Part shown: positions 1,422 to 44,050 of the stretch, piece after piece
Position numbering within the stretch: position 1 is the stretch's first letter
Layout of the letters: the number at the start of each line of letters is the position of its first letter
IMG/VR virus record: IMGVR_UViG_647533159_000003
DNA length: 46,723 nucleotides
From: a virus
Lineage: Duplodnaviria; Heunggongvirae; Uroviricota; Caudoviricetes
Reading direction: 5' to 3' (one strand)
Notes under the pieces: generated by a model
Told to the model about the DNA's origin: nothing
What the model saw: only the letters and a program-made list of their open reading frames with translations
Database searches by the model: none
Made by a program: the position numbers and the translations under genes

Positions 1422-3896
1422 TTAAAAATCAGCCTGATTCGGGATCAGTTTTTGCCAGATTGCTGAAACGTATTTCGCCTGGTGACGGGCATCATCCAGC
1501 GCATGGTGGCGCACGCCTTCAAATGGAATAACTGTTCTGGCATCGAAGTCGATAGTTTTTCCCAGTTCAACGATTGTACGTACATCGCGATCGTTGTAGT
1601 AACGCCACGGGCAGGGGATGTTCAGGCGTTCGTACGAGGTTCGTAAAATAGTGTTGTCGAAAGTTGCACCATTGCCCCATACCTGAACGAATTTTTCATT
1701 CGAGTACTCATTGATGAATTCCCGAAATTGAATAAGAGCGTCAACCAGTTTTACCTGATCAACTAAAATTGCAGATCTGGCTTCGCTGGACTGAGCAAGC
1801 CACCATTCGATGGTGGAACCATCAGGTACAGCCCCCGTGTCCATAGCGTCAACCAGGCTGATAACGATATAAAATGTTGGCCCGATTTCCCCGGTCTGCG
1901 GATCGAAGAACACAGCACCAATAACCACGATGGGGGCATTACTTTTTTTACCCATCGTTTCAAGGTCGATCATCAGGTGGTACCACACTCTGCTGGTGGA
2001 TGTGCTTTTATGATGACCATTCACATTAATTAAGGGATCTGCCGCCTCACCAGTTTCACTATCGCTGGCGTGGTCCTGAGCGCCGCTAGTGTCCCCCTTG
2101 TGTGGATGTTCAGCGCCTTCCATTTCCTCCGGATCATTTTCCTGAACTTCAACCTGATTCTCTTCATCGAATGTTTCCTGATATGTTGCGTTGCCCATCA
2201 CCGCGCCACAATCAGGGCAGTTGCCGCCACCGCTCTGACCGCAGGCGGTGCAGGTTTTTTCTGGTTCTTGTTGCGCTACTGGTTCGGATTGTTTCGTTTC
2301 TGGCTCGTTTTGTAACGCATTTTGGCTGTTTTGTTCCGCTTTCTGGTCGTTCTGTTCCGTTTCTTGCTGGTTCTGGTACACAGAATCGCGGGTTTCAATC
2401 CCCTTCACCCATTTCGGATCATTCGGGTCGCTAATCCCTGCAACAAATTCTCCGCGAGAGGCAGCAAGCAACTGATTGGCGTCAGGCTGGCTGACTGCCT
2501 GCATAATTTTGTTTACTTCGTCAGCGGTAACTTTTACCGGCTCTGGTTGTGCGGTCGTGTCAGATGCACCAGTATTTTGTTGTGAACCTGAGTATGTGCC
2601 GTTTTTGCGGGCAAAATATTCTTCTTTCGTGATTTCAGTAGCCCCGGCAGCCAGCGCCTTATTCAGACCAGAAAGTTTGTTTGCACGACCATATTTTTCG
2701 CCATCCTTATCGGTGAAGAGGAAGTAGAACGGCCCCTCACGCTCTACAGATGGTTCAGTTTCCAGCGCGCTTTCATTTTTTTTGGTATCAGATACTTCAG
2801 TTTCCACTGCATCAGTTTGTGCTGCTGACGGCTGGAGAATATCAGCAGTGTTCTGGTCTGTTTCTTCATCCTCAAACACGCCCTTTGTCGCCAGGTATTC
2901 AGTGATGTATTTGTTCAGTGCCACGGGATCCTTGTGAATGTCGATCGGACGCTCACGGACAAGGCCAAAAATAGTCTGACGGTCATAGCGAATGGCATCA
3001 GGCTGTTTGCGCATTGATGCGGAAATACGCTTCCAGTCTTCGCGATCGTTCTCGATAACTTCATTTTTTGCCCAGCGATGGATGCTGCCGTCAATGTTTC
3101 CGGCATCAATGTCACTAGGCCACAGAGCGTAGGCCAGTTCATCATCCAATGTTTTCCATGTCTGCTTGTATTCGCGACGAATAACTGCAGTGACAGGGGG
3201 GATTTTTTCTGCTGAGTTTTCAGTGTGCTGTCGGTTGACTCTGGTGCGGGCGAGATCAACAACAGACGTGTATTTTCCAGTCTCTTTGCGCTCCGCGTCC
3301 TGCCGTTTTTTCCAGTTACGTAATTCAGCCTGAATTTCGGGCCATTTGGCACCCGGCTTACATTTGTGTTTACCCCATCCGATAGCGAACAGTTTGCGTT
3401 CCGGATACATAGCGTTAATTTCTGGTGTTTTCATCAGTGCTTCAACGATATGCCCGTCGAATGTCGCCACGTCTTCCTGCAGTAACTCCTGTGCGCTAAT
3501 CACCATATCAACGGTGATGTTTTCACATGTACCGAACTTAACCAGGACCGCGTTCTGTACTTCAAGGGACAGCTTGTCAAAATTGACGTTCATCGGATCG
3601 GATTCTGGTTCGACCGGAATAAAGGAAGCGGATTCCTCATCCCAGCGGTTTTCCTGCATATATTCGGTATCCCAGGAGTCGATAGCAGGGCGGGGCATGC
3701 CGGGTTTATCCTCGCAGACAAGAAATTTATAAGCGCAGTCCTGAGCAGCCGGATATTGCTCCAGGAATTGCCAGGTAAATTTGGCACGGGCGCGGCGTTC
3801 GTCACCGGCTTCAATGGCAGTGGCTACAGCAACTGCACCTTCTTCCTTTATTGCCTGTTCGTCCGGAATGGCGGCGCAAATAAAGACTTTACTCAT
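1422..3896 (-). CDS. Putative exonuclease (C-terminal DEDDh/DnaQ-like 3'-5' exonuclease domain; acidic Q/E-rich linker and Cys4 zinc ribbon)
   Basis: 824-aa ORF in the exo/bet position; C-terminus carries DLETMG ... HHALDDA motifs; central [16 protein letters not shown]. Confidence 0.7.
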
Positions 3897-3976
3897 TTTG
3901 TTTTAACCTCATTACAGATTTAAGGGTGAACAAATCCCTGCCATTGCTGGCATCTAAAAATGAAACCGGATATTAA

Positions 3977-4180
3977 TTACGGTGCTGCTTTAAGTCCTGC
4001 CGGGATTTCGTTATTGTCCATGCGAATAACTTTATCAACCGGATAACAGTTGCCGGGAATTTTCTGTTCCGCTGCGGCAGCCATGCATTCTTTCATTGAG
4101 TCATGTATACCAATAACAAGATCGACTGGTTCGCCTGTATTAAGAAAAACTGTCAGAACGAGTGCAAATGCTGTATTCAT
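3977..4180 (-). CDS. Small protein with hydrophobic N-terminus (putative secreted/membrane), unknown function
   Basis: 67 aa from ATG 4180 (MNTAFALVLTVFLNTG...); SD-like AAGGACG upstream; 2-nt spacing to the upstream gene. Confidence 0.4.
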   Translation of the reverse strand: MNTAFALVLTVFLNTGEPVDLVIGIHDSMKECMAAAAEQKIPGNCYPVDKVIRMDNNEIPAGLKAAP

Positions 4181-4182
4181 TG

Positions 4183-4365
4183 TCAGCGTCCTTTTTGCAT
4201 CAGGCGTAAACGGGCCAGCATTGAAACAATGCATATTTGATTTAATAGCTCCCGTTCGTGTTTTCTCTTATTAATGGCATCTTCAGTAAATACAGGGTTA
4301 CTGATTCTGACACCAATTTCAAAACAACCTTCAGACGTATTGACGTTTGGTAATAACGTTTCCAT
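4183..4365 (-). CDS. Small hypothetical early protein
   Basis: 60 aa from ATG 4365 with GAGGA SD 8 nt upstream; coupled to the downstream small gene. Confidence 0.35.
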   Translation of the reverse strand: METLLPNVNTSEGCFEIGVRISNPVFTEDAINKRKHERELLNQICIVSMLARLRLMQKGR

Positions 4366-4544
4366 TATCGCGTCCTCAACAATGAATTTTGTGATGCGGT
4401 GCCTGGTGCCTCCAGGTGACGTTAACCAGTTAATAATTAACGCCGGATACAGAGAACCCACCCATAAGAACCAATACGGAAGTCAACTGGCCTTTTTAAC
4501 TGTTCCGCGTGCGCTGAGCCGCATTCACCGCATCACAAAATTCA

Positions 4545-4591
4545 CTTTAAAAAGGGCGGGTATCACGGGGAAAACAAAACGGATACCCGCC
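4545..4591 (-). terminator. Hairpin plus T-tract (minus strand), putative early-left terminator
   Basis: 10-bp inverted repeat GGCGGGTATC/GATACCCGCC (4555-4564 / 4582-4591) followed on the minus strand by TTTTTAAAG. Confidence 0.4.
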
Positions 4592-4932
4592 AAAAGGTAA
4601 TCAACATGGGTTGTTGTGGCGGGGTTGTCACTCAGGCGTATGGTCAACCTGACAACCCGGTGCCACTAATGGGGTAAGGATAACCCCGCCATACTTACCG
4701 CCGCGCCATTTCGCGGATTGCCACAACCGGAAGCGCACGGTCGAATTAAATTTAACGACACCGTACAGACAGAAGAACTTCGCCGTGCGCTTTCGCGTTA
4801 TGCCCTGACTTTTCAGGGATATATCCTTTCAGTAAACTGTCAGTGCCGGATTCTTATCCGTGTCCGGCGCACGACTACACGTGGCAGCGTGTTGGTCTCC
4901 ATTTTTAACCCAGAACCTCAATGGAGGATAAA

Positions 4933-5142
4933 ATGCCAAACAGACCAATACATCCGCTTATTGAAAAACAGATTGAATGTCTGGTTAATCAACTCAGGCA
5001 ATCAGGGTTATTAAAAAACCATTCAGAGTTAAGGCTCACGAAATCAGCATTTGACGATAAATTAAACAATGTGCTTTATAATGGCATCATTGATTACAAT
5101 CGTGGTGTTGGTCGTCGTGGCCCTGCTGGCACCGCCCTGTAA
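4933..5142 (+). CDS. Hypothetical 69-aa protein, convergent partner of the 212-aa gene
   Basis: ATG 4933 preceded by GGAGGA (4923-4928); AT-rich; stop codon abuts the stop of the minus-strand gene. Confidence 0.35.
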   Translation: MPNRPIHPLIEKQIECLVNQLRQSGLLKNHSELRLTKSAFDDKLNNVLYNGIIDYNRGVGRRGPAGTAL

Positions 5143-5781
5143 TTACCAGTCAATCCAGAGCGGATAGTGTTCAGCGTAAATATAGCTGTATACATCAAGG
5201 TTGTATTTGTGGTCTGCTTTTAACAGGTCACAAATACATGTTGCTGCTTCCAGGGCTGAAGCTCTGTTACTGAACATCCACGTCGCAACATTCCAGCTAT
5301 TCTCTGTATCCCATTCTTTCGCAAGAGTTGACACTCTGAAGGATCCGTTGGCGTTGCCATCAAATACTTCTGTTTCCAGGTTCTTAAGCAATGCCTGATG
5401 AACTTTTGTCAGGTATTCAGCCGGAATCTTGCCACGGATTCTGATGAGATTGTCATAAACAAACATATTTCCCGCGTATGGCGATTTTTCTTTCTTGTTT
5501 TTTAAACCAGCATCATGAGCAAACTGATCAATTTCTTCTTTCATTGGTTTCGTATTGATGTTTTGCGCTGTCGTTTCTGCAATTTTCTTTGCCACACTCT
5601 CTGAGTCGTGTTTATTTACAGACGAACAGAAATACAATCCGGTAAACGCATCGCGCACATTACGAGCCATATTATCAATGTCTTTCTTCGTTGCAGATTC
5701 TAATTCAACTTCGGACAGACGTTGACAAAGTGCATGCGCTGCAATCACCTTGATTTCTTTTGGTAACTCTTTAAATTCCAT
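5143..5781 (-). CDS. Hypothetical protein, 212 aa (accessory gene in early-left operon)
   Basis: Long clean ORF, AT-rich relative to its flanks, no motif recognised. Confidence 0.7.
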   Translation of the reverse strand: MEFKELPKEIKVIAAHALCQRLSEVELESATKKDIDNMARNVRDAFTGLYFCSSVNKHDSESVAKKIAETTAQNINTKPMKEEIDQFAHDAGLKNKKEKSPYAGNMFVYDNLIRIRGKIPAEYLTKVHQALLKNLETEVFDGNANGSFRVSTLAKEWDTENSWNVATWMFSNRASALEAATCICDLLKADHKYNLDVYSYIYAEHYPLWIDW

Positions 5782-5792
5782 CTATAACCCCG

Positions 5793-5921
5793 TTAGTCGA
5801 TAGATTTTGCCGAACTGGAAAGCGCCTGTTTAAACTCACTGAAGCTGAGAGCTTCTTCGCCTTCGGCAAGGCCTTCGAAGTATTCTTCGTAAGCCTTTTC
5901 CATGATTGTGTCGAAATCCAT
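5793..5921 (-). CDS. Small acidic hypothetical protein (42 aa)
   Basis: MDFDTIMEKAYEEYFEGLAEGEE...; AGGTGA SD; ATG lies 1 nt after the stop of the upstream gene (GGTGAGTGATATG). Confidence 0.4.
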   Translation of the reverse strand: MDFDTIMEKAYEEYFEGLAEGEEALSFSEFKQALSSSAKSID

Positions 5922-5922
5922 A

Positions 5923-6078
5923 TCACTCACCTGAATTTCTTTCCAGCCAGCGACGTGCGCCAGATTCGGTTTTAAACGTTTTGCTTTTGGTATACGTCAT
6001 CGCGGTGAATGTGCCGTCCTGGTTGGGAAACACGCCGTATACCAGAGATTCGTTGTTGCCAAGATCGATAGTATCCAT
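5923..6078 (-). CDS. Small protein resembling the Rac-prophage YdaF/DUF1391 family (51 aa)
   Basis: MDTIDLGNNESLVYGVFPNQDGTFTAMTYTKSKTFKTESGARRWLERNSGE; GAGGT SD 6 nt upstream; first gene downstream of the PL-like promoter. Confidence 0.55.
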   Translation of the reverse strand: MDTIDLGNNESLVYGVFPNQDGTFTAMTYTKSKTFKTESGARRWLERNSGE

Positions 6079-6151
6079 GCTGACCTCATTTCCCCTTAAC
6101 GCCGGGGTGGCGGAACTAAGACCTGTCGCACCGTTGTGCTTTGATGACTGA

Positions 6152-6179
6152 ATGATACTACCTGAAGTAGATGTGTCAA
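6152..6179 (-). promoter_or_regulatory. PL-like sigma70 promoter (leftward) with operator-like TGTAG/CTACA repeats
   Basis: Minus strand reads TTGACA-16 nt-TATCAT; flanked by CTCTAC/CATCTAC/GGTAG motifs that recur at the PR-like promoter. Confidence 0.5.
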
Positions 6180-6232
6180 CACTAAAAGTAGAGTTTATTG
6201 TGTTTTTGTCTACATAAAGTTGTTTTTTAAGG

Positions 6233-6258
6233 CAAAAAAAACCCGGCAATGCCGGGGG
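6233..6258 (-). terminator. Rho-independent terminator after the repressor gene
   Basis: Minus strand: CCCGGC-ATT-GCCGGG hairpin followed by an 8-T run. Confidence 0.75.
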
Positions 6259-6274
6259 TTGTTAACAGATAAAG

Positions 6275-6763
6275 TCACTCAGAAGGTGGTGGGGTGCTGG
6301 CGTATTTCTCGTAGAAATCGTAAAGTTTCTTGAGTCTCATCTCAAAAGCCAGAAGCATATTCCTGGCTTCAACTGGCGGAAACTCCCGAAACGTTCGTAT
6401 CAGCCGCTTTTCATCTTCACTTAACTCAGTAAATTCGCCATTGCTATTGGCACCAGATCTTTGTGTTACAAATGAATCTTCTGCTGGTTCAATTCCTTTC
6501 TCTGTTGGCTGACCGTATTCCAGCCATGCAGGTTCAACTCCCAGAAATTCTGCTATTCGTTCGAGTTTTTCGTCGCGGGGTTTAGCTGTACCTAGGGTGT
6601 AGCGCCGCGCCATTTCGTATGTGACGCCCGTAGATAAGCTTAAGTCTTTGATGGATTTGTTTTTTCTATCCATTTCTGACTTAAGTCTTGTTGCGAATGC
6701 GTGATGTTTATGTGCGTTTTCTACCATATGTAGAAGATTAAAGCAGTTGCCTTGATTCGTCAT
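6275..6763 (-). CDS. Phage repressor, HTH XRE family (cI/RacR functional analogue)
   Basis: HTH region AFATRLKSEMDRKNKSIKDLSLSTGVTYEMARRY; divergent from a Cro-like gene. Start uncertain (ATG 6763 or 6727, possibly leaderless); the 6784 TTG overlaps the PR -35. Confidence 0.8.
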   Translation of the reverse strand: MTNQGNCFNLLHMVENAHKHHAFATRLKSEMDRKNKSIKDLSLSTGVTYEMARRYTLGTAKPRDEKLERIAEFLGVEPAWLEYGQPTEKGIEPAEDSFVTQRSGANSNGEFTELSEDEKRLIRTFREFPPVEARNMLLAFEMRLKKLYDFYEKYASTPPPSE

Positions 6764-6778
6764 TTCTATTTTGTGTAG

Positions 6779-6806
6779 TTGCAAATTCTACTTTATGTAG
6801 TATTAT
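6779..6806 (+). promoter_or_regulatory. PR-like sigma70 promoter (rightward) overlapping palindromic operator motifs
   Basis: TTGCAA (6779-6784)-16 nt-TATTAT (6801-6806); GTAGTTGCAAATTCTAC and TACTTTATGTAGTA partial palindromes overlap it. Confidence 0.55.
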
Positions 6807-6833
6807 TCTCTCGTTCTTGAAATGGAGCTAACG

Positions 6834-7118
6834 ATGAGCACTACATACAAAAACATTACAGAAAAGGCAGTTATGGCTATTGGTTCTCCCTCTGCTGTAA
6901 GTCGCATGTTTGGTTTCAAATCGCCTCAATCCATTTTTAATTGGATTATCAGGAACAGGGTTCCTAGTGAGAGGGTTATTAGGCTTTGTGAGCTTGGGGA
7001 ATGGATTGTTACTCCGCATGATCTCCGGCCTGATTTGCACCCTACTCCAGTTAGTGGGATTCCAGAAGAAGTTATCAGATCCAAAAAAATAGGGTTGATT
7101 CATGAAAATCAAGCATGA
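6834..7118 (+). CDS. Cro-like HTH regulator, YdaS family
   Basis: GGAG SD then ATG 6834; HTH ...SAVSRMFGFKSPQSIFNWI... and HDLRPDL motif; first gene of the rightward operon. Confidence 0.75.
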   Translation: MSTTYKNITEKAVMAIGSPSAVSRMFGFKSPQSIFNWIIRNRVPSERVIRLCELGEWIVTPHDLRPDLHPTPVSGIPEEVIRSKKIGLIHENQA

Positions 7119-7527
7119 ACACATCCGCATGGCGATGAATGCCTGGGCGCATCCGGACGGTGAAAAAGTTCCGGCAGCTGAAATAACCCGGGCTTATTTT
7201 GAGCTGGGTATGACGTTCCCGGAGCTATATGACGACAGGCATCCGGAAGCCCTGGCTCGCAATACTCAGAAAATTTTCCGCTGGGTGGAGAAAGACACCC
7301 CTGATGCGGTTAAGAAAATTCAGGCGTTGTTACCAGCTATCGAAAAAGCAATGCCGCCTCTGCTGGTGGCCCGAATGCGCAGCCACAGTTCAGCCTATTT
7401 TCGGGAGCTGGTGGAGACGCGGGAACGACTGGTGAGAGACGCTGATGATTTTGTCGCAGTGGCGATCGCTGGTTTCAACCAGATGAATCGTGGTGGCCCG
7501 GCGGGAAATATTGTGGTTGTGCATTGA
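7102..7527 (+). CDS. YdaT-like protein (reported CII functional analogue / toxic when derepressed)
   Basis: N-terminus MKIKHEHI..., 141 aa, directly after the YdaS-like gene. Confidence 0.7.
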   Translation: MKIKHEHIRMAMNAWAHPDGEKVPAAEITRAYFELGMTFPELYDDRHPEALARNTQKIFRWVEKDTPDAVKKIQALLPAIEKAMPPLLVARMRSHSSAYFRELVETRERLVRDADDFVAVAIAGFNQMNRGGPAGNIVVVH

Positions 7528-8546: not shown

Positions 8547-9391
8547 NNNNNNNNNNNNNNNNNNNNNNNNNNNNNNNNNNNNNNNNNNNNNNNNNNNNNN
8601 NNNNNNNNNNNNNNNNNNNNNNNNNNNNNNNNNNNNNNNNNNNNNNNNNNNNNNNNNNNNNNNNNNNNNNNNNNNNNNNNNNNNNNNNNNNNNNNNNNNN
8701 NNNNNNNNNNNNNNNNNNNNNNNNNNNNNNNNNNNNNNNNNNNNNNNNNNNNNNNNNNNNNNNNNNNNNNNNNNNNNNNNNNNNNNNNNNNNNNNNNNNN
8801 NNNNNNNNNNNNNNNNNNNNNNNNNNNNNNNNNNNNNNNNNNNNNNNNNNNNNNNNNNNNNNNNNNNNNNNNNNNNNNNNNNNNNNNNNNNNNNNNNNNN
8901 NNNNNNNNNNNNNNNNNNNNNNNNNNNNNNNNNNNNNNNNNNNNNNNNNNNNNNNNNNNNNNNNNNNNNNNNNNNNNNNNNNNNNNNNNNNNNNNNNNNN
9001 NNNNNNNNNNNNNNNNNNNNNNNNNNNNNNNNNNNNNNNNNNNNNNNNNNNNNNNNNNNNNNNNNNNNNNNNNNNNNNNNNNNNNNNNNNNNNNNNNNNN
9101 NNNNNNNNNNNNNNNNNNNNNNNNNNNNNNNNNNNNNNNNNNNNNNNNNNNNNNNNNNNNNNNNNNNNNNNNNNNNNNNNNNNNNNNNNNNNNNNNNNNN
9201 NNNNNNNNNNNNNNNNNNNNNNNNNNNNNNNNNNNNNNNNNNNNNNNNNNNNNNNNNNNNNNNNNNNNNNNNNNNNNNNNNNNNNNNNNNNNNNNNNNNN
9301 NNNNNNNNNNNNNNNNNNNNNNNNNNNNNNNNNNNNNNNNNNNNNNNNNNNNNNNNNNNNNNNNNNNNNNNNNNNNNNNNNNNNNNNNNNN
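8547..9391. other. Run of 845 N (assembly gap or masked sequence)
   Basis: Uninterrupted n characters; length not a multiple of 3, so the reading frame is not preserved across it. Confidence 0.99.
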
Positions 9392-19853: not shown

Positions 19854-20417
19854 NNNNNNNNNNNNNNNNNNNNNNNNNNNNNNNNNNNNNNNNNNNNNNN
19901 NNNNNNNNNNNNNNNNNNNNNNNNNNNNNNNNNNNNNNNNNNNNNNNNNNNNNNNNNNNNNNNNNNNNNNNNNNNNNNNNNNNNNNNNNNNNNNNNNNNN
20001 NNNNNNNNNNNNNNNNNNNNNNNNNNNNNNNNNNNNNNNNNNNNNNNNNNNNNNNNNNNNNNNNNNNNNNNNNNNNNNNNNNNNNNNNNNNNNNNNNNNN
20101 NNNNNNNNNNNNNNNNNNNNNNNNNNNNNNNNNNNNNNNNNNNNNNNNNNNNNNNNNNNNNNNNNNNNNNNNNNNNNNNNNNNNNNNNNNNNNNNNNNNN
20201 NNNNNNNNNNNNNNNNNNNNNNNNNNNNNNNNNNNNNNNNNNNNNNNNNNNNNNNNNNNNNNNNNNNNNNNNNNNNNNNNNNNNNNNNNNNNNNNNNNNN
20301 NNNNNNNNNNNNNNNNNNNNNNNNNNNNNNNNNNNNNNNNNNNNNNNNNNNNNNNNNNNNNNNNNNNNNNNNNNNNNNNNNNNNNNNNNNNNNNNNNNNN
20401 NNNNNNNNNNNNNNNNN
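19854..20417. other. Run of 564 N flanked by identical 102-bp sequence
   Basis: n characters; flanks are exact duplicates, suggesting an unresolved contig join or a masked insertion. Confidence 0.99.
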
Positions 20418-33632: not shown

Positions 33633-34858
33633 ATGGACTGATTCTGACAACGTCCGGCGCTGCAGAAATTGAAGCAGCATATCAGAACGGGCAAACCGTG
33701 ACCGTCCGGCATGTTCTGCTTGGTGACGGGGGCGGGCGGGCATTGCCATCCACGCCGGATGAAATGGCAGCAATGACATCGTTGTACGGCGAATTCGGGC
33801 AGGAACCCTTTTCCGACGGTGCGGTGGAGGAGGGCTTCATCAGCGGGGATATTGTGATTGACTGTAAATCATACCCCGGTAAAACCCTTCGAGAACTGGG
33901 GATGATCAGCGACAGAGGTACGCTTATCGCGTACGGACGTTATCCGGACACCTTTTTACCAGACCAGACGGACTCCGTTATCAAGGAAGTTATTCTGACG
34001 CTGGTTCTTGGGCTGACGCACGCACAAAACGTGGTGCTGGAAGTTGATCCGGACAGGGCCATTATTACTCAGGAAATCGGAGACAGACGCTATCTGCAAC
34101 GAAAAAAGAATCTTTCGGATGTGGAAGACAAGGATGAGGCTGTTGAAAACCTCGGATTAAAACCCACGGTGGACAAGGCAAAAAATGCCGTTCAGCGTGA
34201 TGGCGACACCATGACAGGAAAGCTGACGCTGCCCCAGACCTCCGGATTTGGTGTTAACACTGACAATACCCTGGGAGGTAACTCAATTGCTTTCGGGGAT
34301 AACGATACAGGTATAAAACAAAACGGCGACGGCATTCTGGATGTTTATGCGAATGGACAGCATGTATTTCGTTTCCAGAATGGTGTGGCGATAGCGTTAA
34401 AAAATATTCAGGCCGGAAATGCTAAAAAATTCACGTTATCCAGCGCCAACAACTCCACGAAAAACGCAACGTTTAATTTATGGGGTAATTCATCCCGACC
34501 TGTAGTTGCAGAGCTTGGTGATGATTCCGGCTGGCATTTTTACAGCCAGAGAAATACCGATGGCAGTATCACATTCGCTGTAAACGGACAGATGACCCCA
34601 TCAAACTATGGAAATTTCGATGCCCGTTATCAGCAGCGAAATGGCGGCGTGCAGGATGTGCGTTATGGTTCCGAAATGTATTACAACCCGGGAGGTAACC
34701 AGGTATCCTGGACATTTCGCTCACCTTCAGGCCACGGGTTATCCGGTATTAATGTGCAGGAAACCGGAAGTAATTCGGCAGATAACATCGGCGGCGTGTA
34801 TTACCGTCCGCTTCAGAAACTGATCAACGGCACCTGGTATAACGTGGCGAGTGTTTAA
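33629..34858 (+). CDS. Tail fibre protein (P2 gpH-like C-terminal receptor-binding region)
   Basis: C-terminus ...GDNDTGIKQNGDGILDVYANGQHVFRFQNGVAIA.KNIQAG... near-collinear with the P2 H C-terminus. Confidence 0.8.
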   Translation: MNGLILTTSGAAEIEAAYQNGQTVTVRHVLLGDGGGRALPSTPDEMAAMTSLYGEFGQEPFSDGAVEEGFISGDIVIDCKSYPGKTLRELGMISDRGTLIAYGRYPDTFLPDQTDSVIKEVILTLVLGLTHAQNVVLEVDPDRAIITQEIGDRRYLQRKKNLSDVEDKDEAVENLGLKPTVDKAKNAVQRDGDTMTGKLTLPQTSGFGVNTDNTLGGNSIAFGDNDTGIKQNGDGILDVYANGQHVFRFQNGVAIALKNIQAGNAKKFTLSSANNSTKNATFNLWGNSSRPVVAELGDDSGWHFYSQRNTDGSITFAVNGQMTPSNYGNFDARYQQRNGGVQDVRYGSEMYYNPGGNQVSWTFRSPSGHGLSGINVQETGSNSADNIGGVYYRPLQKLINGTWYNVASV

Positions 34859-34860
34859 CA

Positions 34861-35403
34861 ATGTTGCATTTAAAAAATATTACTGCGGGCAATCCGAAAA
34901 CCGCAGAACAATATCAGATGACAAAAAAATATGATGTTACCTGGCTTTTTTCGGAAGACGACAAAAACTGGTATGAAGAACTGAAGAATTTCGCCAGCGA
35001 CACAATAAAAATAGCTTACACCGGAGACGGGCGCGTGGTGTGGGTCGGTAAGGATGTGACAGGTATTGAACCCCGTAACGCCAGTGTTATTGAAGTTCCT
35101 GATATTACCGCTAACCGCCGCATTACCGCACCGGGTTACTGGTTCTACCGCAATGATGAATTTGTTTTTGACTACAAACTTAAAGCGGAAGATGAGCGTG
35201 ATGCACTGTTAAAACAGGTCAGCATCATGACCAGCGAATGGGGAAAAGACCTGCTGCTGGGATTAATCAGTGACGAAGACAGGGAGAAACTGAAAGCGTA
35301 CCGCATTTACGCGAAATCGCTGCAGGCGATGGATTTCAGCGCTATTACGGATAAGACCACTTACAACAATATTAGCTGGCCTGAGCAGCCACAAAATACC
35401 TGA
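34861..35403 (+). CDS. Tail fibre assembly chaperone (P2 gpG / Tfa-like)
   Basis: 180 aa immediately after the fibre gene; Tfa-family-like C-terminus. Confidence 0.7.
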   Translation: MLHLKNITAGNPKTAEQYQMTKKYDVTWLFSEDDKNWYEELKNFASDTIKIAYTGDGRVVWVGKDVTGIEPRNASVIEVPDITANRRITAPGYWFYRNDEFVFDYKLKAEDERDALLKQVSIMTSEWGKDLLLGLISDEDREKLKAYRIYAKSLQAMDFSAITDKTTYNNISWPEQPQNT

Positions 35404-35422
35404 AAAAGAAGTTAATCATCTG

Positions 35423-35446
35423 ACCGCCTGAGGGCGGTTTTTTTAT
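35423..35446 (+). terminator. Rho-independent terminator after the fibre/chaperone pair
   Basis: ACCGCC-tgag-GGCGGT followed by TTTTTTT. Confidence 0.75.
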
Positions 35447-41367: not shown

Positions 41368-44050
41368 ATGTCTGTATTAATTTCGGGTGTGCTGACGGAT
41401 GGCACGGGACTCCCCATGTCCGGATACCATATTATTCTGAAAGCCCGACAGAATACATCCGCAGTGGTTATGAGAACGGTGGCAACAGTGGTGACGGGGC
41501 CGGCAGGAGAATATGCATTTGAGGCTCAGACCGGAAGATATGACGTTTATCTTCGGTCATGTATTGAAAGAGAATATTGTGTTGGTGATATTTCGGTTTA
41601 CGACGATTCAAAGCCCGGCACACTGAACGACTTTCTGACCGCCCTTGATGAAGGCGATTTAAAGCCGGATGTAGTGAAACGCTTTGAGGAACTGGTGGCG
41701 CAGGCGCAGCAGAGCGCGGAAGCGGCAGCGGAAAGCGAACGACAGGCCGGGCAACATGTCGCTGATGCGCAACAAATCAAGAGCGACTGCGAGACGCTGG
41801 CGGATAACGTACAGCAGAATGCAGAAGCCGTTGCCGAAGATAAAAAGCAGGTGGCACAGCTGGCATCATCTGCCACACAGGATGCCGCCCGCGCAGAGCA
41901 GGCTGTCAAGGATGCTGNNNNNNNNNNNNNNNNNNNNNNNNNNNNNNNNNNNNNNNNNNNNNNNNNNNNNNNNNNNNNNNNNNNNNNNNNNNNNNNNNNN
42001 NNNNNNNNNNNNNNNNNNNNNNNNNNNNNNNNNNNNNNNNNNNNNNNNNNNNNNNNNNNNNNNNNNNNNNNNNNNNNNNNNNNNNNNNNNNNNNNNNNNN
42101 NNNNNNNNNNNNNNNNNNNNNNNNNNNNNNNNNNNNNNNNNNNNNNNNNNNNNNNNNNNNNNNNNNNNNNNNNNNNNNNNNNNNNNNNNNNNNNNNNNNN
42201 NNNNNNNNNNNNNNNNNNNNNNNNNNNNNNNNNNNNNNNNNNNNNNNNNNNNNNNNNNNNNNNNNNNNNNNNNNNNNNNNNNNNNNNNNNNNNNNNNTAT
42301 TACACCTTTTCCACGCGAACGGAAGAAACCACCGGGGATAACAGAAATTATCTGGCTGGATAATGGCTGGGGCGACAAAACCAGCCAGACAGCAACAAAG
42401 CTGGTTCTGTTCTTTGGAAAAGACGGACGGATTCTTATGACCGTTCGTGGCGATAATATCTCCGCCCCGGTCACCTGGACGAATCTGACGCCACAACTGG
42501 GCAATGCAGCACAAAAGGATGCGCAGGAGAATATTTACGACCGCACCGAAGGCCGCCTGGCGATTCCTGGCATGTTCGGTTTCGGGAAAATATTTTCCAG
42601 TAGCGACAGAACTGAATTTAAATCAGGGACTGATTTTCTCAGGTGGGTAAAAACAGCAAAACCCGGTCGTTATACCGTATTTGCGGACACAAATGTGGTG
42701 GTACCTGGCATACAGACAAACGGTGTTATTGAAATTATCTGGCCACAACCTAAAACCAGCCCGAATGATGAGTATGCCTATAAGATAATTATTTATTACG
42801 GTGTTAATGGTCATATTTATTATAACCGTTGCGCGGTGTCATCAGATGGTGGTTATCTGGTTGGCTGGGAAAACCTGAAGGTTGATGAGGCTTCACTCAG
42901 GGCACTGATTGAAGCCCGCGCACCACTGAAAAGTCCGGCACTGACCGGAACTCCGACAGCACCAACACCGCCGGATGATGCAGCAGGTAATGAAATAGCC
43001 AATGCGGAGTTTGTCCGCAAACTGCTCGCTGCGCTGGTTGACTCATCACCTGAAGCCCTGGACACGCTGAACGAGCTGGCAGCGGCGCTGGGTAATGACC
43101 CGAACTTTGCGACAACGGTCACTAATGCACTGGCAGGTAAACAGCCGCTTAATGACGTGTTAACGGCTGTCAGCCAGATAATACCGGAAGAAAACACGCT
43201 GCCTTATTTCAGTGAAGAGGGCCGGATTTTACTGGCGCAGCTGTCAGAAAAAGCCCGCGCATTACTGGCACTGGACACACCTGAAGCCATGCGCACGGAG
43301 CTTGAGCTGAAAGCGGCTGCGACGATGGAATCCCAGAGCGATATCCGCGACCGTACACCGGGCAGGCTGGCGCTGTCCGGCATGTACGGATTCGGTCAGG
43401 CATTTACCAGCACCGACGCTCTGGCGTTTGACGGACAGGCTGATTTTGCTGAATGGCTGAAAGAGGCCACGCCGGGGCGTTATGCGGTCAGCATTGCGGA
43501 CTCTTCCACGCTGCTGGTTGGCACAACGAAATTTAACGGCATCATTGATGTAATGTGGTCGCCCTTTGATAACGATGAGTCGGACACAACGCGCAAATTC
43601 AAAACGCTGCTGTGTTTTAACCAGTATTACGAAGGTGAGCACAGTATTCATCGCCTGACTTATCGCTGGAGTGGAAACAACTGGAATGCAACAGTAAGCC
43701 CTGTCATTTACGATGGCGATTCGCTGGCGTTCCTGCTGTCCCGAACGGCAGGCTCAGGCTCATATTTCAAATACCCGGCAGTGGGTGTTCCGGTGCTTGC
43801 TGTTTATCGCGGAACAACGTCCGGGGATAAAGAAATCAAAATTGGCCTGGGTGATGTGGTGCCAGGGTCACAACTGGGCGGAGTTAATCTTTCGTGCACA
43901 ATATCTTCTGCGGGGGCTGGCTCCTACGGTTCCACACCGAGTGCAGGAGCTACAGGGTACACTTTTCCGGGGCGTTATATGGCGTTATCCGGGGTCAGGG
44001 ACTCTTACGGAACAAGCGGTCGTATCTGCCTGTTTGTGCGCATCGAGTAA
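41368..44050 (+). CDS. Side tail fibre (lambda Stf-like N-terminus, P2 H-like central collar), interrupted by an N run
   Basis: N-terminus ...ISGVLTDGTGLP...ILKARQNTSAVV...VYDDSKPGTLNDFL... resembles lambda Stf; after the gap ...APLKSPALTGTPTAPT...LNELAAALGNDPNFATT.TNALAGKQP... resembles P2 H. Confidence 0.7.
41918..42297. other. Run of 380 N inside the fibre gene
   Basis: n characters; length mod 3 = 2, which explains the apparent frame change of the fibre ORF. Confidence 0.99.

Follow-up and report, generated by a model that had tools for sequence, protein, structure and literature searches.

A convergent gene pair in a dicBF-type prophage operon represents one version of an exchangeable, polymorphic cassette of two genes

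A convergent pair of genes

The 46,723-nucleotide stretch of DNA analysed here (the window) is IMG/VR record IMGVR_UViG_647533159_000003, from a virus of the Caudoviricetes. Between its genes for a RecE-like exonuclease and a helix-turn-helix (HTH) repressor lie two genes that meet tail to tail: a minus-strand gene for a protein of 212 residues, A212 (called Ybl81 in some sources), and a plus-strand gene for a protein of 69 residues, B69 (Table 1). The region represents one allele of a cassette, polymorphic and exchangeable, whose two genes sit between ydfB and the leader of a DicF-like RNA in the early-left operon of Qin/Rac-like lambdoid prophages. What is new here is the recognition that the pair is a single version of such a cassette, which is widespread and has conserved handles at both 5' ends.

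The two stop codons stand side by side, TAA at 5140-5142 for B69 and TTA at 5143-5145, read on the other strand, for A212. The plus-strand open reading frame (ORF) ending at 5142 would encode 73 residues if started at the ATG at 4921 and 69 if started at 4933; the latter is the start kept in B69 homologues and has a GGAGGA Shine-Dalgarno (SD) sequence (4923-4928) five bases ahead of it. An earlier account of the locus, drawn from its letters without database searches (the sequence-only reading), had described this tail-to-tail geometry, the strong SD sequence, the high AT content of both genes relative to their flanks and their siting in the early-left operon between recombination genes and repressor, and all of these features are borne out by the ORF listing and the annotation of the neighbours. 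The GC fractions of the B69 and A212 genes are 0.405 and 0.408, against 0.523 for the DicF leader, 0.492 for the recE-like gene and 0.503 for the window as a whole.

Both ORFs are real genes. A212 matches the PHROG family phrog_2151 over its entire length (E 1.4e-119, residues 1-212 of 212) and B69 matches phrog_4274, its sole PHROG match, likewise (E 5.9e-43, residues 1-69 of 69), both being function-unknown phage families, and RefSeq annotates both ORFs as hypothetical proteins. Among the unique full-length alleles taken from 153 IMG/VR loci (36 of A212, 21 of B69), none contains an internal stop (0/36 and 0/21). The Nei-Gojobori ratio of nonsynonymous to synonymous substitution rates (dN/dS) is 0.33 for A212 overall (0.41 in the N-terminal domain, 0.53 in the linker and 0.19 in the C-terminal domain) and 0.10-0.22 for B69 alleles compared with that of the window at dS 0.2-0.5. 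Ratios stay well under 1 even at dS up to 0.8, and intact copies, 65-100% identical, number in the hundreds. The conservation and dN/dS analysis that the sequence-only reading had proposed as a check thus finds coding constraint on both ORFs, and homology to a known lambda early gene, which it had named as the other observation that would speak against it, was not detected.

That reading had also found no recognisable motif in the large ORF, and this extends to both proteins: searches of Pfam, NCBIfam and PADLOC (E <= 0.1-1) assigned neither to a family, with NCBIfam matches at noise level only (E ~0.02), and sequence-profile searches of the Protein Data Bank gave nothing better than E ~1. A 'YdfC-like' label for A212 was dropped, as BLASTP of A212 against K-12 YdfC (b1573) gave no alignment at E <= 100; loci L169 and L166 have ydfC as a gene of its own, located upstream of the cassette. 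No description of Ybl81, of the RefSeq accessions or of this cassette was found in the literature.

Distribution of the allele

In a large protein collection, the protein clusters found for A212 (n=142) and B69 (n=36) all come from Escherichia and Salmonella, and two scans of a one-genome-per-species collection found no relative. The 920-bp block spanning the pair (4881-5800) is carried by 565 of 5426 complete E. coli genomes (coverage >=80%), mostly at ~87% identity, so that about one in ten of these genomes has this allele; related alleles are as common or nearly so. Hosts include O157:H7 and other Shiga toxin-producing E. coli, and the allele is often present in several of their prophages. 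Sequence of the allele is found at a median of 2 places per E. coli genome and at 4 at most. Single genomes or contigs also hold several cassettes of different alleles in different prophages, for instance IMG/VR 2654588054_000006 (loci L006 and L175), an observation that bears on any idea of specificity between co-resident prophages.

Searches of sequenced phages with tblastn gave nothing significant for B69 (one match, E 0.8) and none for the C-terminal domain of A212, so the allele is known only from prophages and IMG/VR contigs. The matches of A212 in the same phages are limited to residues 1-50 up to 1-86.

In K-12 Qin and in phages such as Tritos the 920-bp block is missing and a ydfC segment of ~320 bp stands in its place, which agrees with the earlier description of the pair as an accessory module.

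An exchangeable cassette with conserved 5' handles

A212 is modular in build. Four PHROG families (phrog_1363, 9419, 6937 and 33007) match its residues 1-75 only, and the proteins P0160-P0176 share with it just residues 1-50 to 1-96, their C-termini being unrelated. The same boundary appears at the nucleotide level: blastn of the window against six other loci (L164, L167, L169, L166, L163 and L162) shows homology ending at the small-gene ATG (4934-4947) and coming back at 5618-5644, around codon 50 of the A212 gene. About 90 nt before the ATG are the same ahead of six unrelated small ORFs, and contain a GCCGGA...TCCGGC hairpin and aacctcaatGGAGGAtaaaATG. The cassette is therefore bounded by two handles, recognisable on the large-gene side by the codons for MEFKDLP...NVRDAF and on the leader side by GTGTCCGGCGCAC...GGAGGAnnnnATG, the second of which doubles as the distal end of the untranslated region of the DicF precursor on the opposite strand. 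At the same site, phages Evi and PPompW encode a 135-residue protein with an A212-type N-terminus and another C-terminus, together with an unrelated convergent ORF of 77 codons that overlaps it by 23 nt.

There are at least seven unrelated versions of the cassette, each with the common N-terminal domain (MEFKDLP...), a different C-terminus and a different convergent small ORF. All fetched loci were scanned for the N-terminal signature together with the opposite-strand leader (counts include contigs fetched more than once), and the clusters of large-protein C-termini were compared with those of small ORFs. Seven one-to-one pairings and no cross combinations were found: the C-terminal domain of A212 with B69 at 172 fetched loci (31 distinct allele pairs), proteins of 135 and 77 residues at 86 loci, 119 and 64 at 25, 179 and 80 at 10, 129 and 99 at 10, 125 and 102 at 8, and 201 and 63 at 9. 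In IMG/VR, the A212 gene lies directly tail-to-tail with the B69 gene at 73/73 loci carrying the latter. Four of the small ORFs of other alleles match function-unknown PHROGs (10133, 8894, 4987 and 10348), and those divergent enough to be analysed have dN/dS values of 0.13-0.27. The arrangement, a conserved N-terminal part followed by unrelated C-terminal parts that each have their own small gene, is that of polymorphic effector/partner systems. Recombination at these two 5' handles exchanges everything that lies between them, and a given C-terminal domain is thereby transferred together with the small protein that belongs to it.

Two observations on individual alleles may be added. A Salmonella enterica contig (L171 1523-3340), whose prophage has a Mu-type repressor (HTH_Tnp_Mu_1), carries tandem cassettes, a 200-residue A212-like protein with a 69-residue one followed by proteins of 119 and 64 residues, and the same ~110-nt leader is duplicated, with one copy ahead of each small gene. 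The 102-residue small ORF of another locus (L169 2789-3097) has a weak match to the Pfam family GhoS, a type V antitoxin, below threshold (E 0.015; the score is 15.8 bits, and the cut-off 21).

The same pair in Cox-type prophages

Relatives of the variable part recur in a different kind of prophage. Two Salmonella proteins, P0168 and P0170, are 31-32% identical to the C-terminal domain of A212 in our alignment (A5), or 37-38% over the matched stretch, and differ from it at the N-terminus, P0168 having an extra HTH_3 domain. The prophages that encode them are ordered int - HTH repressor - Cox - P0168 or P0170 - ... - RecE. In both, a convergent ORF of 64-69 codons overlaps the 3' end of the large gene, and its product is a B69 homologue (38-49% identity) ending, as B69 does, in RRGxPAGxxL. 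Residues invariant among B69 homologues are Q13, E15, Q20, L21, SGLLK at 24-28, F40, K43, L44 and a C-terminal R-x-x-PAG-x-x-L.

Predicted features of the two proteins

AlphaFold2 models of both proteins are of low confidence. That of A212 (predicted local distance difference test score, pLDDT, 58) has a helical hairpin at residues 8-47, a disordered stretch at 49-99 and a C-terminal domain at 102-208 with the order strand-strand-helix-strand-strand-helix-strand; that of B69 (pLDDT 60) has helices at 8-24, 30-33 and 37-60. B69 is predicted to be soluble, without transmembrane segments, and its conserved C-terminal tail, GRRGPAGxxL, to be disordered. The two proteins differ in charge, with an isoelectric point (pI) of 9.7 for B69 and 5.3 for the C-terminal domain of A212.

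Operon context

The operon is of the dicBF type, as in the Qin cryptic prophage, and the A212 gene belongs to this repressor-controlled early-left operon. Its order is repressor, then ydfA-ydfB-A212 gene, convergent with the B69 gene, and then DicF leader-DicF-like RNA-dicB-ydfD-recE-like gene. The first genes, ydfA and ydfB, are 94-96% identical to those of K-12. In K-12, the dicBF operon is transcribed from a DicA-repressed promoter upstream of ydfA (PMC5069750, PMC10448788), and the untranslated region upstream of DicF is reported to be processed by RNases III and E (PMC10448788). The window shares with Qin the DUF1391 gene ydfA, ydfB, a long structured untranslated region, a hairpin at the DicF position, DicB (PF05358) and DUF1482. 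It differs in that K-12 has an unrelated 72-residue YdfC and no convergent ORF, other prophages holding both ydfC and cassette (L169), and in that the DicF of the window is a divergent allele missed by Rfam. Three masked runs of N interrupt the window (8547-9391, 19854-20417 and 41918-42297), the first of which breaks the replication-gene region to the right of ydaT.

Table 1. Features of the cassette and of its surroundings in the window
Feature	Position	Strand	Basis
Small gene, B69 (69 aa; phrog_4274)	4933-5142	+	ORF listing, PHROG match
Large gene, A212 (212 aa, ATG start; phrog_2151)	5143-5781	-	ORF listing, PHROG match
A212 N-terminal helical-hairpin domain, codons 1-57 (MEFKDLP...NVRDAFTGLY)	5611-5781	-	PHROG, tblastn, blastn
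A212 C-terminal domain, codons 98-212 plus stop; acidic alpha/beta, allele-specific	5143-5490	-	
Cassette left handle: first ~50 codons of the large gene	within 5611-5781	-	blastn, PHROG
Cassette right handle: small-gene leader with hairpin GCCGGA...TCCGGC, GGAGGA 4923-4928, ATG 4933	4844-4932	+	
Variable core: small-gene body with large-gene linker and C-terminal domain, replaced as a block	4936-5620		blastn breakpoints, cluster pairing
HTH_3 repressor (DicA/RacR position)	6275-6784	-	Pfam, PHROG
Divergent ydaS-like and ydaT-like genes	6822-7527		Pfam, PHROG
ydfB-like gene (5793-5930) and ydfA/DUF1391 (ATG 6078)	5793-6078	-	PF07151 E 8.8e-29; phrog_2061, phrog_751
Structured untranslated region upstream of DicF (dicBF 'long UTR')	4612-4843	-	K-12 ydfC-dicF spacer alignment, G-U wobble
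DicF-like hairpin and U-tract, divergent allele	4549-4597	-	K-12 dicF alignment with 9-nt gap; predicted folds
dicB (PF05358) and ydfD (DUF1482), downstream in the same operon	3977-4374	-	Pfam
RecE-like exonuclease, 824 aa, followed by xis and int	1422-3896	-	

Likeness to known systems

The nearest positional parallel is sieB. In lambda, sieB (34482-35036) converges on N (complement 35037-35438), and the stop codons of the two are adjacent; in Rac, sieB shares 4 nt with ydaF (DUF1391), and the small RNA kilS and kilR come next, a layout that mirrors ydfA...small gene-DicF-dicB in the window. Like sieB in lambda, P22 and Rac, the small gene lies within the early-left operon but points the other way and meets an early gene tail-to-tail, and on these layouts the B69 gene occupies the sieB slot. 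The sequence-only reading had pointed out that lambdoid phages keep exclusion functions in this location, and sieB provides the instance. It is a prophage-expressed gene with an antisense RNA, named sas in P22, as its modulator (PMC12197685, PMC7067206), and genes that lie antisense to a lytic operon are typically accessory (PMC7067206). B69 differs from SieB in having no sequence relation to it and no transmembrane segment and in its length, 69 residues against roughly 160-190; searches for membership of the SieB family in Pfam, NCBIfam and PADLOC (E <= 0.1-1) gave no match, phrog_4274 again being the only PHROG. The small gene of the window also co-varies with the C-terminal half of the gene that it abuts and shares its leader with unrelated small genes, neither of which is, to our knowledge, known for sieB.

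Pore-forming colicins (for example A, E1, Ia) are induced by stress or SOS, have their activity in a variable C-terminal domain, are accompanied by a convergent, constitutive, cognate immunity gene and exist in many specificity types. The cassette resembles them in its conserved N-terminal part, variable C-terminal domain and small downstream gene on the opposite strand. Colicins differ in that they are bacteriocins, are secreted, possess domains for receptor and translocation and are accompanied by a lysis gene, and their immunity proteins are integral membrane proteins, whereas the proteins of the window are small, soluble and phage-borne and have no homology to them. In the CdiA-CT/CdiI and Rhs-CT/RhsI systems, too, a conserved N-terminal part is followed by unrelated C-terminal domains, each with its own small gene, and alleles are exchanged at conserved flanks. 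There, however, the small gene points the same way as the large one, the secreted toxins are huge, and the junctions are marked by motifs such as VENN or PxxxxDPxGL, all of which are lacking in the window cassette.

Possible function of the cassette

The reading that we favour, at a probability of roughly 0.4, is that the cassette encodes a cognate early effector and a small inhibitor made by the lysogen, under antisense control. A212 and B69 would be cognate partners, with a separate transcript yielding B69 in the repressed prophage; the basic B69 would bind and neutralise the acidic C-terminal domain of A212, irrespective of whether A212 was leaked by the prophage itself or brought in by another phage with the same allele, superinfecting or co-resident. 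The early transcript must reach dicF and dicB, and it is therefore geometrically necessary that it reads antisense through the small gene, in line with the sense/antisense arrangement that the sequence-only reading had entertained; upon induction, this transcription would turn B69 off and free the effector. The logic would be that of sieB with its antisense RNA in P22 and lambda, and of SOS-induced pore-forming colicins with their convergent immunity genes. The coding constraint on both genes, their linkage at all 73 IMG/VR loci, the recurrence of the pair in Cox-type prophages, the one-to-one correspondence of clusters, the opposite charges of the two products and the positional precedent of sieB all argue for a cognate pair.

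Several observations weigh against an effector and its inhibitor. At three loci (L063 4350-5113, L075 and L077) the small gene has an internal deletion of 163 nt (equivalent to window positions 4935-5097) and the large gene, whose product ends in ...WIDWFKG, is intact. Many 211-residue proteins ending in ...WIDWFKG, including Ybl81, likewise come from loci in which the small gene is internally deleted and the large one kept. At ~20 fetched loci (repeat fetches counted; 3 distinct allele pairs; for example L005), the small gene is frameshifted by the change of A7 to A6 in ATGCCAAACAAAAAAAG, which covers its codons 3-6 with the A-run after codon 4; this could be a homopolymer sequencing error, decay or a slippery tract. 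The large protein is thus tolerated without its partner. As for expression of the small gene, scans for sigma-70 promoters found no credible promoter for it, and no terminator was found. A promoter-like element, TTAAC(C/T)-N16-18-TAAAAT, is repeated at every small-gene start with its -10 over the ATG (window 4905-4934; L171 3050-3021 and 2361-2334), and it would be unable to yield an SD-bearing mRNA, as it overlaps the start codon. The B69 peptide was not found in the supplements of a Sakai Ribo-seq study or of an Enterobacteriaceae microprotein survey. Finally, the co-variation of the two genes can be explained by linkage alone, since no sequence is shared between alleles except beyond the two variable parts, which leaves recombination no site within them.

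This last point leads to the strongest alternative, namely that the two genes are merely neighbours, independent accessory genes that co-vary because both lie between the same handles. The small gene, in the sieB slot, would then be a 'moron' that the lysogen expresses for exclusion, for defence or for lysogenic conversion of another kind, and the large gene would encode an early accessory protein, for example for anti-defence or host takeover, with a diversifying C-terminus. We regard this as a serious possibility, if one short of an even chance. In lambda and Rac the slot holds sieB, a position antisense to a lytic operon is typical of accessory genes (PMC7067206), and the low GC content of the pair suggests acquired DNA. 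The small gene may be lost while the large one is kept, and another moron may enter alongside: at the three loci with the 163-nt deletion, a convergent gene of phrog_1244, encoding ~172-211 residues and having its own perfect TATAAT, is inserted in the leader, its product being a coiled-coil and zinc-ribbon protein of a function-unknown family. The exchange of a moron, however, does not require that the C-terminal half of its neighbour be replaced, yet every allele shows such a replacement. Nor is the small gene ever seen without the C-terminal domain among the 73 IMG/VR loci, and the pair of C-terminal domain and small protein recurs, convergent and overlapping, in Cox-type prophages at ~31-49% identity.

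A toxin-antitoxin or abortive infection system, in which the large protein would be a toxin and the small one an antidote indispensable to the lysogen, seems improbable. A variable C-terminal domain with a small, adjacent, cognate gene and products of opposite charge would fit such a system, as would the sub-threshold likeness to GhoS (E 0.015) of the small ORF of one other allele. The genes are convergent, though, rather than forming an autoregulated co-directional operon, and no toxin or antitoxin domain was found for either protein in Pfam or PADLOC, nor any match in NCBIfam. In addition, the prophage repressor already silences the large gene, and the many genomes with an intact large gene and a deleted or frameshifted small gene show the latter to be dispensable.

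We consider it scarcely likely, too, that the small product, or merely its antisense transcript, regulates dicBF, acting on DicF processing or on read-through into dicB, with the large protein being unrelated. The small gene does begin inside the conserved structured leader of the DicF precursor, B69 is basic with an Arg/Gly tail, and the SD sequence of its gene could pair, in predicted folds, with an upstream CUCCAU or CCUC. Unrelated small proteins stand behind the same leader in other alleles, however, which argues that the function of the protein is specific to the allele and not to the operon. K-12 Qin, moreover, has the leader and processes DicF without a small ORF, and it is the amino acid sequence of B69 that is under purifying selection. 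That one or both ORFs are chance reading frames, although neither has a Pfam family or a detectable promoter, is hardly credible given their full-length PHROG matches, hundreds of intact copies, dN/dS well under 1 and annotation in RefSeq.

Should the pair encode an effector and its inhibitor, a more far-reaching proposal would be that the cassettes of lambdoid and Cox-type prophages of Enterobacteriaceae make up an undescribed specificity system of at least seven interchangeable types, in which each small protein neutralises only its own type of effector; we think this unlikely. A resident prophage would then disarm any phage sharing its allele, whether superinfecting or co-resident, and induction would switch the inhibitor off by antisense early transcription. 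Such an arrangement would be the counterpart, between phages, of colicin and immunity, and would explain the polymorphism in strains with many lambdoid prophages.

The two 5' handles, with the variable bodies of two converging genes between them, provide a simple sequence rule by which all alleles can be found. DicF and DicB affect cell division and phage resistance. Effector and inhibitor sets would add a new layer to superinfection immunity and prophage competition and would bear on the control of dicBF; if the genes are merely linked morons, the cassette is a newly defined hot-spot of accessory genes at the sieB position of lambda and Rac.

The DicF-position RNA and its leader

The K-12 ydfC-dicF spacer can be aligned to the window from ~4875 down to 4540. 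A search of 3500-7500 with the Rfam DicF model (RF00039) gave no match at E <= 1, K-12 DicF, as a positive control, scoring 76.7 bits. The RNA at the DicF position is a single 10-bp hairpin with a U-tract, and its loop and seed differ from those of K-12 DicF; its targets may differ from those of DicF.

Folded as a single sequence, the leader region has a z-score of -6.6 on the plus strand and -3.3 on the minus strand. A plus-strand RNA structure was nevertheless set aside, as the comparative pattern favours the minus strand, the sense strand of dicBF: among eight diverged copies of the leader, three pairs alternate between G-C and G-U or between U-A and U-G on the minus strand, and give A-C mismatches on the plus strand. 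This pattern agrees with a structured DicF precursor.

The ~320 nt of untranslated sequence before DicF, which are without an Rfam family, are kept at ~80-90% identity among the window (4612-4935), K-12 (L155 2545-2890), a Cox-type prophage (L156 6043-6385) and the Salmonella contig with tandem cassettes (L171 3020-3340). The Cox-type prophage retains this region though the flanking proteins are just ~31-49% identical, and a different terminator hairpin (6401-6418, plus strand) follows it there, as if modules of leader and small RNA existed with different small RNAs. The sequence that separates DicF from dicB (minus strand, window 4388-4542; K-12 L155 2933-3142) has sub-threshold matches to the Rfam family STnc100 (33.5 and 34.4 bits against a gathering threshold of 47), and is 80% identical to a segment of Rac that takes in the 3' end of kilR and the whole kilR-kilS spacer and reaches the edge of kilS.

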